Source of the DNA: Candidatus Dojkabacteria bacterium
GTDB taxonomy: Bacteria; Patescibacteriota; Dojkabacteria; SC72
Assembly: GCA_040767225.1 (NCBI GenBank)
Contig: JAXGOY010000001.1
Span: 31,128-95,127, forward strand
Length of the DNA stretch: 64,000 nucleotides
Direction: 5' to 3'
The position numbers and the translations under genes were made by a program. This document shows positions 32,515 through 64,000 of this stretch, piece by piece. The notes beneath the pieces are model-generated. The model had not been told where the DNA came from and ran no database searches. It saw nothing but the letters and a program-made list of their open reading frames with translations. The stretch's first letter is position 1, and each line of letters opens with the position of its first letter.

Positions 32515-33309
32515 ATGGATGAAGACATTCGAATTAAAAAAGTAAGTGAGAAAAAGATATCAGAAACAAAGAAAACAATCTCTTGGATATTAGGAGTAAT
32601 TGGTATACTAATTATATTAAGTCAAGCTATTCCTCTTCTGGTATCATACATACAAGGACAAATACAGCTCTCAAAACAAAACTCAATGAAAGATCCACTT
32701 CCGCAGTCTTACAAACAGTATATACAAGATGAATTTGCATATTATGACCCAGGAAAAAGCTACTTTGAGAATCTATCTAAAACAGCAGAAGGACTTCAGT
32801 ATCAAGGACTTTTCTCCTATGACCCAACAACAAAAACAACAAAAGAAATTGTCGTAAACAAAGAATACAAAAAAAATATGTACCTTTCAATTCCAGAGGT
32901 AGGAATAGATAAAGTAAGATTAACTCCTAATGTAGAAAGCTCCGAAGAAAAAGTATATGACCAATATCTAAAATATGGTCTTGCCCATTTTAAAGGAACA
33001 CCACTCCCAGGTGATGGAGGAAACTCTTTCATATACGGACATAGTGCTGTTGAAAGTTTCTTTAAGTCTCACTCAAATCTTCCTGAAACAATATTCACAA
33101 GATTAGAGAATGTAGATATTGGAGATACAGTAGAGATATACAGAGATGACCAAGTTTTAAAATATGTTGTAAGAAACAAAAAGATTGTTTCTGCAGATGA
33201 TCTTTCAATACTTCAAACACAAACAGATAAAGAAACAGTTACATTAATGACATGCTGGCCACTAGGTGCTGGTATAAAAAGACTAGTGGTAGTAGCTGAA
33301 AGGATTTAA
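32515..33309 (+). CDS. Sortase (transpeptidase), membrane anchored
   Basis: N-terminal TM. Catalytic His block FIYGHSAVESF. TLxTC active-site motif VTLMTCWP. Conserved Arg in GIKRLVVVAERI. Confidence 0.8.
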   Translation: MDEDIRIKKVSEKKISETKKTISWILGVIGILIILSQAIPLLVSYIQGQIQLSKQNSMKDPLPQSYKQYIQDEFAYYDPGKSYFENLSKTAEGLQYQGLFSYDPTTKTTKEIVVNKEYKKNMYLSIPEVGIDKVRLTPNVESSEEKVYDQYLKYGLAHFKGTPLPGDGGNSFIYGHSAVESFFKSHSNLPETIFTRLENVDIGDTVEIYRDDQVLKYVVRNKKIVSADDLSILQTQTDKETVTLMTCWPLGAGIKRLVVVAERI

Positions 33310-42298: not shown

Positions 42299-44053
42299 AT
42301 GGAACCTACAGACAGGAAAACTAAAACAACATTAAAAAATTTAATGATAATAGGAGCCGTTCTCATTGTAGTATTAATCGTAGTGCTAGTATATTTCTTT
42401 GTAATAAAGGAGGATGAAACAGAAACTCCACAGCCAACAGCCGAAACGACATGTGGATGTTACATAATAGATCCCGCAGTAGTAAATGATTGTGGTGATC
42501 CTAAAAGAGCATTCATCTTCAACCTAAATACTGTTTCAGCAGATCAGGTATGTAATGCAAAATGTGATATTAATGATATAGCAGATAATCTCCTTAACTC
42601 TACAACTCCTAAGGAATCACTAAAAACATGCCCTGTGAGAAGCATATCAGATACAAGATGTGAAAATCTCATACTTAGAGATCAGGATGGAAAGATAATA
42701 ACAGGGAGAGTTAAACCTACGGATGAAATAAATGCAGAAGCAACTTTTGATAAATCTACCTATGTAGATTATACCTTTAAAGTAAATAGTGAGGATAGCA
42801 CTCCTGACAAAGTTGATGGAAATAAAATAACAAAGAAAATTACACCTCCACCAGCTGTTACCGCTATTGAGATAGTTGCAACAGCCAAAGATTCTCAAGG
42901 AGAACAAATAAATTCAATGGTATGTAGAAGAATTCTAGATGTTGAAACAAGTGGGGCAACAGCAGTAACTGGAATGACAGCTATAACAGAACAGCAATCT
43001 GACGGGAAAACAAAAATATCTCAAATAAGCATATCTGTTGGTCAACTTAATAGTGAAAATATAAAGATTAGATTCTCATTTGATCCCACATTTACAACAT
43101 TAACTGCAATAGATGGAATAATAGTAGATCCTACAAAAGGCACAATAGAGATGTCAAAACTTGATTTGTATGATCCAAACAATTTTAGCAATGATTCATT
43201 TAATATTCTTAATGACCATTTAGGAGAGCTTAACATAACAGCTGAGGTATTTGTAAATGAATCTAGTATAGGATCCGCAAGTACAACTGTAACATTTATA
43301 GACACTTCACCAGAAGAAGAACCACAACCAGAAGAACCGCAACCTCTTCCTGACTCAGAAAAGTCTAACTTTGTTGCAACAAAAGCGGTAGGACAATCGT
43401 GTGTACAAAGAACAGAAGGTACAAACTCTGCAACATATACAATTACTGTAAAAAATAACAGAGATGTACAAGATCAAATAGCTTCTGTAAAAGATAAATT
43501 ACCTCTTGGGTTTGTATATACAACTAATAGCTCAATAGTAAATGGAACAGCTATTGTAGATACTGATATGGTAAAAATTACAACCGTGGGTGATACACAA
43601 GAGATAATCTGGGAACCTTCTGCACCATGGAGCATACCAGCAGGAGGAACATTAACTATAGTATTCCAAGCAACAGCAGGAGCTAAATCATTAACAGGAC
43701 AAAATCTAAATGAGGTAATTGTAAACCCTGTCCAAATACCACTAGACCCTTCTACTCTACGATCTCAAGTATACATAGTTGTAGCACAAGATTGTGCTAA
43801 TATTACTGATGAAGAAAAAGAAATACCGAAGACAGGAATATTTGACAGCTTTATTGGAAGAATTGCAGTTGGAATATTCATAATTATAATCGGGTGGATA
43901 ATATATGTAAGACCAGAAGGAACACTCCTTACTGAAAAAATTATCACATCAAAAGCATACGATGACTTTGAGTTTAGAAAAAGTAAAATAACAAATCCAA
44001 AGAAATATTTTGAAGAAAAAGTCTTAAGAAAAAACTCTAAAGGGAATCGATAG
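42299..44053 (+). CDS. Surface protein with DUF11-type (conserved repeat) beta domains and C-terminal IPKTG sorting-signal-like motif
   Basis: N-terminal TM. Domain TYTITVKNNRDVQDQIASVKDKLPLGFVYTTNSSIVNG...WEP...AGGTLTIVFQATAG. C-terminus EIPKTGIFDSFIGRIAVGIFIIIIGWIIYV followed by a charged tail. Confidence 0.55.
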   Translation: MEPTDRKTKTTLKNLMIIGAVLIVVLIVVLVYFFVIKEDETETPQPTAETTCGCYIIDPAVVNDCGDPKRAFIFNLNTVSADQVCNAKCDINDIADNLLNSTTPKESLKTCPVRSISDTRCENLILRDQDGKIITGRVKPTDEINAEATFDKSTYVDYTFKVNSEDSTPDKVDGNKITKKITPPPAVTAIEIVATAKDSQGEQINSMVCRRILDVETSGATAVTGMTAITEQQSDGKTKISQISISVGQLNSENIKIRFSFDPTFTTLTAIDGIIVDPTKGTIEMSKLDLYDPNNFSNDSFNILNDHLGELNITAEVFVNESSIGSASTTVTFIDTSPEEEPQPEEPQPLPDSEKSNFVATKAVGQSCVQRTEGTNSATYTITVKNNRDVQDQIASVKDKLPLGFVYTTNSSIVNGTAIVDTDMVKITTVGDTQEIIWEPSAPWSIPAGGTLTIVFQATAGAKSLTGQNLNEVIVNPVQIPLDPSTLRSQVYIVVAQDCANITDEEKEIPKTGIFDSFIGRIAVGIFIIIIGWIIYVRPEGTLLTEKIITSKAYDDFEFRKSKITNPKKYFEEKVLRKNSKGNR

Positions 44054-44432
44054 AAAACTGTAAAGGAAGTCCATCTTTACCATAAATCACATCATTTGAA
44101 ACTATAACAAAATAGTATTTTTTAGTACTTACTAAGTTTTGAATAGTTACCCTATGCTCATTACTCTTTATCTCATTTTCTAAATCTACTGCAACCATAT
44201 CTAATCCCCCTACTTCTTTACCATATAAAATATATGCTGAACATTTCTCTTTGCTTTTCCATGAAATAACAACAGAGCTTGGAGATTCTCCCTTTTTAAT
44301 CTCAATATTGTAAGGAGTACAACCTTCTACATATACAGAGTCTTGCGAAGCAGATGATTTAATTACAAACAGTGAAATAACTGAAATAAATACTATTAAT
44401 ATAACAATTGTTATTACCCATTTATTCTTCAT
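44037..44432 (-). CDS. Small membrane-anchored FN3/PAP-N-like protein
   Basis: 131 aa, N-terminal TM, VVISWKSKEKCSAYILYG...KKYYFVIVSNDVIYG. Confidence 0.45.
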   Translation of the reverse strand: MKNKWVITIVILIVFISVISLFVIKSSASQDSVYVEGCTPYNIEIKKGESPSSVVISWKSKEKCSAYILYGKEVGGLDMVAVDLENEIKSNEHRVTIQNLVSTKKYYFVIVSNDVIYGKDGLPLQFSIDSL

Positions 44433-44823
44433 ACTCTTTTACAATTATATAATCAGTTAAAGTGTAACTATTACTACTGCCATATGCCGTTATTTCCACT
44501 TTATAAGTTCCGACATCAGTAATACTTGGAACACCTGCAATACCCATATCATCTGTTACCTTAAGCCAAGGTGCACCATCAACCGTTATTATAACATTAT
44601 CTGAACTGCATCCTGCTATCATAGGGTAAAAAGAATACTCCTCCCAAACATATGCAACTCTTGGTATCTCATTAATTATATATGGCACACATCCACTCTC
44701 TTGTACACTTACTCCTTTAACTTCTTCCTCTTTCTTAGAAGCTAAATGTATGCAGGAAGCAATAGCAGCTGTAGGAATCAGTATGCAGAAGATAATGAGT
44801 AGTACCTTTTTAGTATTTATCAT
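44422..44823 (-). CDS. Small putative lipoprotein
   Basis: Start chosen at MINTKKVLLIIFCILIPTAAIASC (signal plus Cys); the ORF is open to 44901. Confidence 0.4.
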   Translation of the reverse strand: MINTKKVLLIIFCILIPTAAIASCIHLASKKEEEVKGVSVQESGCVPYIINEIPRVAYVWEEYSFYPMIAGCSSDNVIITVDGAPWLKVTDDMGIAGVPSITDVGTYKVEITAYGSSNSYTLTDYIIVKEYEE

Positions 44824-44928
44824 ATCTATTAACAAGTGTATCAATAAAATCTGCTGTTTACAAACATTCCAGTTATATATATAATACAGCACAGTTATCA
44901 ATGATTTAATAATATATTTTTACATATC

Positions 44929-60052: not shown

Positions 60053-60732
60053 TTACTCCATATCTCTTACTGCTGTAACTATACCCCTTCTTGTATTTGA
60101 TCCTACAGGCCAGCATGTCATTAAAGTAAGAGTGTCCTGATCCATATATTTACCTAAATATTTTATCTCCTCTGGTTTAACTACCTTAAACTCTACCACC
60201 TTGTATTTATATATCTTTCCTTCATAGCTTACATATATCTGATCCTCTTTCTCTAACTCTCTAAAAGATAGAAGTAGACATTGTATTTTCTTCTTTCATA
60301 GAAATTAACAGTAGAGTGTGCAAAAAGAAATACATTACCATGTTCATCTGGTAGTGCAGACCCTTTTGCATGTGCTACTCCATATACAAGTGCATTTCTA
60401 TATTCCTCAAAGTTATTAATATCCACATTCTTTATTACCTTTGCATTTGCTTTTATCTTAGGAATATATATTCCAAAATCACTGTTTACAAATACAATCT
60501 CTGTATCTTCATCTATCTTCTCAGTGATATTTTGTTCATTTTCTGTAATTTCTACTTTAATTTCCTTAGGTGGTTTAGGTGAAAAACGATAATCAAAATA
60601 TGATGACAAAAATGGCTGATATGTAAAAAACAGTATAATTAATCCAACAAGGAGAAGCAGGATACCTGTGTATTTCAGGTATCCTGTTTTTTTCTTTTTA
60701 CTTTTTTCTTCTGATGTAGTTGTAGATTCCAC
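60053..60732 (-). pseudogene. Second sortase gene, interrupted by a frameshift
   Basis: N-terminal ORF 60253-60732 (TM, ...VYGVAHAKGSALPDEHGNVFLFAHSTVNFYERRKYNVYF). The C-terminal part, in the -1 frame to a stop at 60053, reads SFRELEKEDQIYVSYEGKIYKYKVVEFKVVKPEEIKYLGKYMDQDTLTLMTCWPVGSNTRRGIVTAVRDME. The shift lies in ttctatctttt. Confidence 0.65.
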
Positions 60733-61711: not shown

Positions 61712-61903
61712 TGTTATATATGTTTCTGCACCTGTTTTGGGTAATATAAGAGTAGTGGATGCTCCTAATACTTCTCCTCCATCTTCTATTGGTTCTATTA
61801 CTAATACTTTTGTTCCTACAAAGTTGTCTCCCAGTATTCTGTATTAACATCTTCTGATTAGTGCATAACTGATTCCTAAGTACATCTCCACTATCTTTCT
61901 CTG

Positions 61904-64000
61904 CTAGTAAGGAGAATCTCCTTGTACAAATGCAATATCTTTGTAAAGGCCTGGTTCATTAAGAAGGTTTATTTTAGCAGTATATGTTAATGTTACTATT
62001 TCTCCTTCTTTCATATCTCCTAGATTCCAAGTTGCTAGTCCTTCATTGTATTCAGGTTCTGTAGTAATACTTCCTTTGATATTTCCTCTTACAGATGAGT
62101 TAGCTGTCCATGTACCAGACATATATTCAAATCCTTTTGGTAATATATCTGTTACTTTTACATTTTTAATTAGATATGTTCCTTTTTCTTCATTAGATGG
62201 TGCAGTTACTATTATTGTATACAGAACTGTACTTCCAGTTAGTAATCCGTCAATAGGGCTATCATTGTCTTTAGTTATTTTTAATTGTGAAGGAATTGCA
62301 TAGTTACCAAAGTTATATTCTAGACCAACTACAAAATTAGTTGACTGATCTCGATCTGACGGCTTCTCTGGCAACTGTATAATGTGACAGTTATCATCTT
62401 CATTAATTGGATAACTCTGGTTCCATCCTTCCTTTTGGACCTCACATACTTTGTATGTACCTGGGAACAGATGGTCAAACCAATACCATCCAAAATGAGT
62501 TTCTGTATCATCTGTATCCATACTCTTTAGAGGTGTTTCATCGAATCCTTCTTCATTCCCTTTATAGAGATTTATTGTCCAACCTGAAAGTAGTGGTTCC
62601 TCATCAGTTAATCCATCCATATCTATATCATTCCATTTATATCCATGTACAACCCCATTAGGAGTGTTATAGAAGGTACATATTGTATTACTATCTTTAC
62701 TTACATCAACAGAATACATAGTATATCCATCCAACGAACCGTTATTAATTCCACAATTCGCACCAACTATTTCATATCCAAGTTCAACATTTTCTTTAAC
62801 ATCGTAAGTACCTGTTTTAAGTTCAGAAAATACAATCTTTCCATTAAGGAAATCCGTTTTAGAAGATGAGGGATTACTTGTATCATTACTCACTCCGTCT
62901 ACATCAAATTCCCAATTTATACCCATGATTTGATCACCTGTTGTTGTTAAATCTCCGTCTTCATCTATTACTTTGTATACTGTTAGAGATCCAGTATCTC
63001 TTGTATTGGTGAATGTACATGTAATAGTTTCTCCTGCATCTAATTCAAGACTTTCAGCAGTTTCATTATCATTTATTGAACTAATACAACTTGTATTTGT
63101 TAATTCCCAACCAGAAGTAGTTAATTCTTCAATTGAGTATGAGCCTGGTGCTAACCATCCACTATCTATTGATTGATCATTTATTAGGAAGAAATTATCT
63201 CCCCAACTTGAATCAAATTCAAAGGCTTGTTGACTTTGGTCTGGCAAGGTTGTTAATTTCTCAACTATTATTTTTCCACCCTCTAATTCGACAGTAGCAT
63301 CATCTGTATCTGTATCAATAGATCCATCATTATCTGTTGCGGTAGCTGTTACCACATCAGTATAAAAACCAGGGTTACCGTTAACTGCTCCTGTAAATGT
63401 ACATGTATATATTCCTCCGTTAGCAGGAATAGTACCACCAGTAGCACAAGTATCTCGTCCATTTAGATTTCCATATATATTATCTGTTAAAGTTGTTAAT
63501 GTTACTGATTCTTTACTATTGTTTGTAACTACAACTGTAAACAAGACATCTCCACCAGGTACTGATAAAACAAGTGTACCAGCTGTCTTAGTTACTAAAA
63601 TTGTTGGTAATACATTACTAAAGTCTACTGTCGCATCATCTGTGTCTACTGCTTCTGTTTCATCATTGTCTACTGCCTTTCCTGTAAAGACATTAACATG
63701 ATCTGGTCCTGTATAATCTCCCTCCACCCACTTTGTAATACTAAAATCACATGTCGCTCCTGATGCTAATACTGTTCCTACTTTACAATCAGCATCTCCT
63801 GATAAAGTACCATATACACTATCACTTAGACTTTTAATTGTTACTGACTCCTCACTTGATGTGTTCTTAACTGTAAAGGTAAAGGTTACATTGCCTCCTG
63901 TCTCGGGGATTGCTGTTGGATTGGCTGTCTTAGTTACTTCAATTGTTGGTAATACATTACTAAAGTCTACTGTTGCATCATCTGTGTCTACTGCTTCTGT
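61904..64000 (-). CDS. Large surface protein with tandem DUF11-type repeat domains (3' part; gene continues beyond window end)
   Basis: Open on the minus strand from the window end to a TAG at 61904-61906. Contains a repeated 115-aa unit (TEAVDTDDATVDFSNVLPTI(L/E)VTKTA...V.N.S.ESV.L..L.D..YG.L.G...C...G.I.A.G...C.F) and beta-rich modules. No sorting signal precedes the stop. Confidence 0.7.
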   Translation of the reverse strand, partial: TEAVDTDDATVDFSNVLPTIEVTKTANPTAIPETGGNVTFTFTVKNTSSEESVTIKSLSDSVYGTLSGDADCKVGTVLASGATCDFSITKWVEGDYTGPDHVNVFTGKAVDNDETEAVDTDDATVDFSNVLPTILVTKTAGTLVLSVPGGDVLFTVVVTNNSKESVTLTTLTDNIYGNLNGRDTCATGGTIPANGGIYTCTFTGAVNGNPGFYTDVVTATATDNDGSIDTDTDDATVELEGGKIIVEKLTTLPDQSQQAFEFDSSWGDNFFLINDQSIDSGWLAPGSYSIEELTTSGWELTNTSCISSINDNETAESLELDAGETITCTFTNTRDTGSLTVYKVIDEDGDLTTTGDQIMGINWEFDVDGVSNDTSNPSSSKTDFLNGKIVFSELKTGTYDVKENVELGYEIVGANCGINNGSLDGYTMYSVDVSKDSNTICTFYNTPNGVVHGYKWNDIDMDGLTDEEPLLSGWTINLYKGNEEGFDETPLKSMDTDDTETHFGWYWFDHLFPGTYKVCEVQKEGWNQSYPINEDDNCHIIQLPEKPSDRDQSTNFVVGLEYNFGNYAIPSQLKITKDNDSPIDGLLTGSTVLYTIIVTAPSNEEKGTYLIKNVKVTDILPKGFEYMSGTWTANSSVRGNIKGSITTEPEYNEGLATWNLGDMKEGEIVTLTYTAKINLLNEPGLYKDIAFVQGDSPY
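63250..64000 (-). repeat. Tandem 345-nt coding repeats (DUF11-like domain units)
   Basis: actaaagtctactgt(c/t)gcatcatctgtgtctactgcttctgt recurs at 63615-63660 and 63961-64000. A third copy at the protein level lies near 63270-63340. Confidence 0.6.

Follow-up and report, generated by a model that had tools for sequence, protein, structure and literature searches.

Why should a complete LPXTG cell wall sorting signal stand behind two stop codons, cut off from the surface protein it would serve, and then run on into the next gene without a stop of its own? This arrangement is found near the end of a stretch of 64,000 nucleotides (nt) from a Candidatus Dojkabacteria bacterium (assembly GCA_040767225.1, contig JAXGOY010000001.1), the whole of which is referred to here as the window. 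All genes near this end are encoded on the minus strand, and translation of 62029-60695(-) reproduced exactly the string described in a first-pass annotation of the same DNA, namely an LPXTG motif, a hydrophobic segment of 22 amino acids (aa) and KKRK behind two stops. A DUF11 protein reads ...FVQGDSPY as far as a TAG, which is succeeded by QRKIVEMYLGISYALIRRC, a TAA and YRILGDNFVGTKVLVIEPIEDGGEVLGASTTLILPKTGAETYITLGALISMILGIFLLFFKKRKTS..., and the frame is then open to the end of a 337-aa open reading frame (ORF). No stop follows KKRK, as had been noted before; that of the 337-aa ORF lies at 60700-60698, leaving the frame open for 343 codons past LPKTG. The sorting signal exceeds the cut-offs of both PF00746 from Pfam (26.0 bits, cut-off 20) and TIGR01167 from NCBIfam (24.5 bits, cut-off 15.9) and is therefore beyond chance. 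The protein upstream, hereafter the passenger, matches the DUF11 models PF01345 (53.9 bits against 24.6) and TIGR01451 (41.1 against 24), and a prealbumin-like/isopeptide-type domain is matched by TIGR04226 at its cut-off. The passenger ORF runs past the end of the window, and the DNA from 64000 down to 60713 aligns with that of relatives in a single frame.

The reading we favour is that the signal belongs to a family of surface proteins which carry LPXTG in mid-protein, and that the window's copy of the gene has been broken by four private insertions or deletions (indels). It rests on the observed architecture, its conservation, the synteny with a sortase gene and the indels themselves, and we give it a probability of about 0.72.

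A first homologue search, for which the query started at the TAA and ended with the 337-aa ORF, returned 15 proteins. For nine of them a single ORF passes through LPxTG, the hydrophobic segment and KKRK, with DUF11 upstream; their sources are JGI, ENA, NCBI and Logan assemblies, and the lowest identity among them is 33%. Among species-representative genomes a scan gave 47 loci, mostly from Dojkabacteria/WS6 with some from metagenome-assembled genomes (MAGs) of Roizman-, Moranii-, Collier- and Parcubacteria. Taking species-representative genomes and metagenomes together, the junction between sorting signal and downstream module lies within the available DNA in 49 loci and is uninterrupted in 44 of them, with up to 2,428 aa before LPxTG and, in the untruncated ones, 330-368 aa after it. 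A profile search was then carried out against 1.84 billion cluster representatives (clusters at 50% identity), yielding 1,894 hits at E<=1e-3 and 625 at E<=1e-30. The best 150 hits are proteins of 463-3,052 aa in which the match lies at the C-terminus and covers the profile from near its start, in most cases up to its end. The great majority of the proteins retrieved (146/159) contain LPx[TS]G and a transmembrane (TM) segment with 311-398 residues (median 355) downstream, and two hydrophobic segments follow the motif in 144 of those 146. Six of the 13 proteins without the motif are short products that start after it, and five of the other seven carry MPSTG, MPATG, FPATG or LAVTG. The stop after the sorting signal, which the first-pass annotation had considered lost in this genome unless two genes had recombined here, is thus missing in most of the family, and read-through is the conserved state.

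Full-length members begin with a classic N-terminal signal peptide, and their passengers are arrays of SpaA_2, SpaA_4, DUF11, DUF7507 and SdrD_B domains that extend to about 2,700 aa. Across homologues down to about 30% identity the L, P, T and G of the motif are invariant and x takes many forms (A, S, G, N, K, R, V, Q, D, E, Y). A 'VLG' that precedes LPxTG by three to five residues is at least 95% conserved. Judged from this pattern of substitution, the LPxTG motif is under selection. The uncharged run after LPxTG has a family median of 21 aa, and the loop between the first and second hydrophobic segments (TM1 and TM2) is short and basic, with medians of 7 residues, 4 K+R and 0 D+E and a net positive charge in all 138 members parsed. 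Neither the junction nor the module downstream of it is covered by a Pfam or NCBIfam model. Moreover, we came across no account of a mid-protein LPXTG or of this family in the full-text literature, the coverage of which is incomplete, so that an earlier description is possible. This is apparently a large, conserved and undescribed variant of the sortase-substrate design. One MAG, UBA9296, carries two paralogous fused loci (L005 and L006) with distinct sequences, and therefore one cell can hold several such cassettes. In another locus (L039) a run of N inside the fused gene, at ~7470, makes the gene look split.

The protein that follows the junction is itself organised like a secreted one. In the window TM2 reads KKRK, then ILVITFVFAIGIFTLL, then TYA/Q, and has by sequence the positive n-region, h-region and small-x-small c-region of a signal peptide. 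The alanine at its -1 position is invariant in an alignment of ten sequences, and a small-x-Ala site closes TM2 in every junction locus listed. An AlphaFold2 (AF2) model of a 381-aa query stretch shows helices at TM1 and TM2, two beta-sandwiches, a disordered acidic region and a terminal helix, TM3 (Table 1). Foldseek matches the sandwiches to tandem fibronectin type III (FN3) domains such as those of Robo3 and neogenin (E about 1e-7); these are generic matches that give no functional clue. The FN3 module has a conserved Cys pair and, at the start of its second domain, a Y-x-K lysine that is at least 95% conserved. In the acidic stalk before TM3 there recurs a 'GEV(L/A)G' motif like that immediately preceding LPxTG, with its final G at least 95% conserved, and by its sequence the C-terminal anchor resembles a further sorting signal that lacks LPxTG.

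Five loci (L040, L041, L043, L044 and L049, one of them from a Collierbacteria MAG) show what the two halves look like as separate genes. Here the upstream gene ends 24-34 residues after LPxTG with a textbook C-terminal sorting signal, and the FN3 gene stands apart, starting M-(R/T/E/K)-K and continuing with an h-region and AxA. Thereafter the split FN3 genes read '(L/V)SVR(L/V)EQPK(S/T)P', the same as the fused proteins. The split cassettes are also like the fused ones in the homologous C-terminus of the passenger (VLGAS-LPxTG-TM-K/R), in the FN3 module, in the sortase and in the order of all three; they are unlike them in the stop after the K/R tail and in an FN3 gene with its own signal peptide that overlaps or abuts the gene before it. 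Three of the five loci have overlapping genes that share 8-17 nt and are read in different frames, and the remaining two have a gap of a few nucleotides between the genes. Because the frames overlap, a small indel would be enough to fuse such a pair. The homology of the split-gene signal peptide identifies TM2 of the fused proteins as the former signal peptide of the downstream gene, and the K/R loop, read from its sequence, is at once the charged tail of the sorting signal and the n-region of the signal peptide. A neighbour-joining tree of the module, which is rough and indicative given that it holds 25 sequences only, many having been missed in extraction, places the split forms together with one fused Roizmanbacteria member nested among them; this weakly hints at more than one fusion or fission event. 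The idea that two genes have been joined is thus correct in a deep evolutionary sense, since five loci are still two genes, and incorrect as an event in this genome. Likewise the orthologues that end LPxTG-TM-K/R-stop, which the first-pass annotation had proposed to look for, exist in the five split loci, with the remaining 44 continuing as one ORF.

The sortase gene directly follows in every locus with DNA past the end of the ORF, often overlapping it by about 17 nt. In intact relatives the sortase is 226 aa long and passes TIGR01076 (58 bits, cut-off 39.35). It reaches 74 bits against a cut-off of 160 with the class C model NF033745. In the window the gene is broken by a 1-nt deletion, which leaves 'FAHST' with the His in the first fragment and both 'TLMTC' (Cys) and 'NTRRG' (Arg) in the second. 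The sortase of L015 (8283-8937) aligns in two pieces, and a frameshift is possible there too. Far from the locus, at 32515-33309(+) of the window, another sortase homologue is encoded, which by tblastn shares about 30% identity with that of L001. Sortases are frequent in bacteria of the Candidate Phyla Radiation (PMC6744442).

How the two stops arose was examined by comparison with four loci (L002, L051, L052 and L055) of 89-95% nt identity, in all of which the ORF is uninterrupted. L002 is 89% identical over 2.7 kb; L055, at 95.4% over 1,958 nt the closest relative found, was obtained by cluster look-up, and a metagenome scan gave four loci, none of the same strain. This assembly has four private indels (+2, +1, +1, -1), placed 30-55 codons before LPKTG and arranged as two frameshift pairs, each of which compensates itself. 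The ancestral frame holds before, between and after the pairs; of the two shifted segments, the first contains the TAG and the second the TAA. The TAG itself is an out-of-frame 'T TAG CAG' within the ancestral 'CTC TTA GCA G' that is exposed by the +2 insertion, and the alternative (+1) frame of the window keeps 'SLLAEKDSGDVL', including an ancestral 'LLAEKDSGDVL' that is in frame in the close relatives. With the four indels undone, the frame is open as 'GDSLLAEKDSGDVLGISY...LGDNFVGT' and matches the relatives; the repaired stretch is 'GDSLLAEKDSGDVLGISYAQSEDVNTExLGDNFVGT', and 48 of 60 residues are identical to L051. Because the stops sit in the shifted segments and repair opens the frame, they are by-products of frameshifts and not nonsense substitutions. 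The severing of the sorting signal from its DUF11 substrate is therefore real in the sequence as deposited, where both stops are in frame, and only its cause was misjudged.

The linker indels are not alone. The gene order downstream is sortase, then FolD, SHMT, ThyX and dCTP deaminase, and comparison with L051 revealed eight further private indels, giving 12 in the 4.1 kb between 57.8 and 61.9 kb; none was detected in the other ~58 kb of the window. The FolD gene is left in four pieces, the first 48 codons of ThyX are detached and SHMT is altered in its last codons (Table 1). Elsewhere the window appears sound: dCTP deaminase, an aminotransferase and an AAA protein each align in one frame and are intact, the ribosomal protein genes give full-length profile matches, the DNA from 61.9 to 64.0 kb is co-linear with relatives, and, as far as 61.7 kb, 92% of the window is taken up by ORFs of 100 aa or more. 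The broken genes diverge from L051 by 2.6-3.2%, with synonymous to nonsynonymous substitutions of 11:7 in the sortase, 14:13 in FolD and 17:9 in ThyX. These ratios look constrained rather than neutral, which would favour an error or very recent events. Homopolymer-type sequencing error was rejected as a general cause because most of the indel contexts are not homopolymers, and no consistent methylation-motif context at the indels was seen by eye. In L055 (2138-3955) the sortase is followed by a 143-aa and a 431-aa gene instead of FolD, which places a synteny break at the 3' end of the sortase (window ~60045).

The product of an intact fused gene would probably be handled as follows. The N-terminal signal peptide would start Sec export of the passenger and TM1 would stop the transfer. 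The K/R loop would then stay in the cytoplasm, serving as the charged tail and as the n-region of an internal signal peptide, and TM2 would restart translocation so that the FN3 module also comes to lie outside, tethered by TM3 and its K/R tail. The adjacent sortase would cut LPXTG between T and G and pass the passenger to the envelope, and signal peptidase would probably cut at AxA in front of the FN3 module, so that a small hairpin would be left over. One ORF would thus likely give rise to two surface proteins in a 1:1 ratio as a sortase-processed polyprotein. The topology is supported by the positive-inside pattern of the loop and by homology to the split genes. We infer this topology, both cleavages and what becomes of the products; the invariance of the motif, the linkage to a sortase and established sortase biology are our grounds for the cleavages and for where the passenger ends up. 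A further suggestion, speculative and rather improbable, is that the FN3 module is the acceptor, its Y-x-K lysine or the N-terminus made by signal peptidase resolving the LPXT acyl-enzyme. If so, the giant adhesin would be mounted covalently on a membrane-anchored acidic stalk and not on peptidoglycan, rather like a built-in basal pilin, and Patescibacteria would possess a cell-wall-independent, 1:1 self-anchoring sortase system.

Several other explanations of the stops have to be weighed. The account given in the first-pass annotation, that two nonsense substitutions severed the signal and that a stop was lost after KKRK or genes recombined in this genome, has in its favour that both stops are present with none after KKRK, and that the halves do exist as separate genes in some lineages, on an evolutionary scale. 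It is nevertheless very improbable, given that each stop lies in a segment bounded by indels, that the ancestral peptide survives in the +1 frame and that the stop-less K/R tail recurs in the uninterrupted loci and in hundreds of protein clusters. Reassignment of TAG and TAA, or programmed read-through or frameshifting that expresses the ORF as written, could be invoked since the frame is restored after each stop and the window has no TGA stops, which is unusual. However, all 52 long ORFs of the window, complete ribosomal protein genes among them, end in TAA (45) or TAG (7). These codons are thus used as stops here, a point that the first-pass annotation had wished to see checked, and recoding is excluded on that ground; moreover, the relatives have no stops at these sites and there is no slippery or repeat context at the indels, so that we regard expression of the ORF as written as scarcely conceivable. 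The two remaining explanations concern the origin of the indels. To an error of local assembly or consensus, for example poorly polished long reads or a bridge of very low coverage, with the real gene intact, we would give an even chance. The concentration of all the indels in one short interval fits such an error, as do their spread over four functionally unrelated genes, the integrity of FolD (here with three frameshifts) and ThyX in all relatives, the intact state of so close a relative as L055, and substitutions that look constrained at a low divergence, which agrees poorly with a long, neutral accumulation of indels. On the other hand, most of the indels fall outside homopolymers, SHMT lies inside the cluster and yet its 1.5-kb body has escaped, which is what selection would predict, and substitution density is raised around the second pair. 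Should the indels be real, the adhesin-sortase locus, FolD and ThyX would be recently inactivated pseudogenes in this strain, a serious contender that we hold at a little under even odds. The same private indels serve this explanation equally; breakage affects the substrate as well as its dedicated sortase, as would be expected after the loss of one of them; SHMT is touched in its last codons only; and deletions outnumber insertions by seven to one among the eight indels outside the linker, those in the linker being mostly insertions. Yet the loss of FolD, ThyX and an unrelated surface locus within 4 kb of an otherwise intact and compact genome is hard to explain, the divergence is low with substitutions that appear constrained, and restoration of frame pair by pair in the linker could not have been selected, both shifted segments holding stops. 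The stops of the window should accordingly be taken as biology only with read support.

A different challenge concerns the function of the motif and not the stops. By textbook definition a cell wall sorting signal is C-terminal; hence an internal motif could in principle act only as part of a hairpin anchor. Under this alternative the internal LPxTG is no sortase site, TM1, loop and TM2 form a hairpin, and the protein is an uncut, polytopic, membrane-anchored adhesin, to which the C-terminal TM anchor it already has lends some weight. We consider this unlikely because the motif is invariant: L, P, T and G are fixed with x free over about 150 clusters at <=50% identity, the sortase gene is always adjacent and overlapping, and the same motif is a canonical C-terminal sorting signal in the split loci. 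For the mid-protein sorting signal and the indel-broken gene, some points tell the other way and are brought together here. All family sequences come from MAGs or metagenomes, the sortase falls below the cut-offs of the class C, D and E models, and the sparing of SHMT together with the raised substitutions near the second pair argues for real mutations over error.

It remains to set the family beside known systems. The canonical LPXTG sorting signal of Gram-positive surface proteins is the tripartite signal of the Schneewind type (PF00746, TIGR01167). The family shares with it the LPxTG pentapeptide, the uncharged segment of about 21 residues and the K/R tail, which makes three of the four sequence criteria, and it shares with canonical systems a SpaA/Cna-B-like and DUF11 substrate with a sortase encoded alongside. 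It departs in the fourth criterion, C-terminal position, since its signal is in mid-protein with the K/R tail leading into TM2 and about 300 further residues. Sortase pilus and adhesin clusters likewise have a prealbumin-like/isopeptide-type substrate beside its own sortase. They differ in that the sortase of the family is below the class C, D and E cut-offs and that its FN3 membrane module is translationally fused; no separate major, minor or basal pilin genes were seen. The nearest conceptual analogue is the midcut-by-XrtH family of exosortase substrates (NF033207), which, going by the name of the model, also has a processing signal inside the polypeptide. That system differs in using an exosortase and a PEP-CTERM-type signal in Gram-negative bacteria. 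Membership of midcut-by-XrtH was rejected, the match of 27.1 bits (cut-off 45) being to N-terminal repeats only.

Table 1. Positions of the features discussed, in window coordinates or, for the AF2 model, in residues of the 381-aa query stretch.
Feature	Position	Strand	Basis or remark
Passenger, C-terminal part (DUF7507, SpaA-type prealbumin-like, SdrD-B-like and DUF11 domains)	61907-64000	-	Pfam and NCBIfam matches
Private 2-nt insertion (CT), opens frameshift pair 1	61911-61910	-	Alignments to L002, L051, L052, L055
TAG ending the DUF11 ORF	61906-61904	-	Translation
19 codons between TAG and TAA	61903-61847	-	
Private 1-nt insertion (A), closes pair 1	61881	-	Alignments; frame back at 'LGISY'
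Private 1-nt insertion, opens pair 2	about 61863-61859	-	Alignments; placement ambiguous within 5 nt
TAA, inside shifted segment 2	61846-61844	-	Translation
Linker with conserved NFVGT and GEVLGAS motifs, N-terminal to the sorting motif	61843-61745	-	Alignment of relatives
Private 1-nt deletion, closes pair 2	about 61838 (61837-61838)	-	Alignments; frame back at 'LGDNFVGT'
LPKTG sortase recognition motif, internal to the native ORF	61744-61730	-	Hidden Markov model scores and conservation
Peptide covering VLG and LPKTG			GEVLGASTTLILPKTGAETY
TM1, 22-aa hydrophobic segment of the sorting signal, AETYITLGALISMILGIFLLFF	61729-61664	-	Sequence; AF2 helix
KKRK loop, predicted cytoplasmic	61663-61652	-	Sequence; family loop charge
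TM2, internal signal-peptide-like segment ending TYA/Q (AxA-type)	61651-61577	-	Conservation, split-gene homology, AF2 helix
Two beta-sandwich (FN3-like) ectodomains with conserved Cys pair and Y-x-K lysine	61576-60974	-	AF2, Foldseek, conservation
Acidic T/E/Q-rich disordered stalk with repeated GEVAG motifs	60973-60770	-	AF2 predicted local distance difference test (pLDDT) <50
TM3, RRKK tail and TAA stop, C-terminal membrane anchor	60769-60698	-	Translation, AF2
Cognate sortase gene, overlaps 3' end of surface-protein gene	60053-60732	-	Split by the private deletion at about 60261
Sortase, frame-breaking 1-nt deletion	about 60261		His and Cys in different fragments
Two private indels in intergenic spacer	60042-60044		
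FolD, private 1-nt indels	59781, 59633, 59481		Gene in four pieces
SHMT, private 1-nt indel	57973		Alters last codons
ThyX, private 1-nt indel	57821		N-terminal 48 codons detached
AF2 helix (TM1)	residues 45-59		
AF2 helix (TM2)	residues 64-82		
AF2 beta-sandwich	residues 94-188		pLDDT about 90
AF2 beta-sandwich	residues 196-270		pLDDT about 90
AF2 disordered acidic region	residues 290-351		pLDDT <50
AF2 terminal helix (TM3)	residues 353-380		

Two observations made elsewhere in the window are recorded here. A small ORF at 44037-44432(-) matches an FN3 / purple-acid-phosphatase N-domain and overlaps a 159-aa ORF at 44422-44901(-) without a family match; the pair (44037-44901(-)) may be another surface-protein gene or a split gene. 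In addition, TGA terminates none of the 52 long ORFs. The triplet is common out of frame, and related loci of similar GC do use it as a stop, as 2 of the 13 ORFs of L001 show. This genome seems to avoid TGA in both roles, as a stop and as a sense codon.

Annotation pipelines define and seek sortase substrates by a C-terminal LPXTG, and the signal of this family is in mid-protein. Such genes may be taken for fusions or errors by gene callers and curators, or their downstream part may be restarted as a gene of its own, as with the 331-aa product (P0001) recorded for this contig. The family comprises at least 625 clusters at 50% identity from several Patescibacteria lineages, and in each case one gene would jointly deliver a giant adhesin and a membrane-anchored FN3 protein. 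If the cleavage is confirmed, this would be a natural sortase-processed polyprotein and a clear Rosetta-stone link between adhesin, FN3 module and sortase, in organisms that live attached to host cells.

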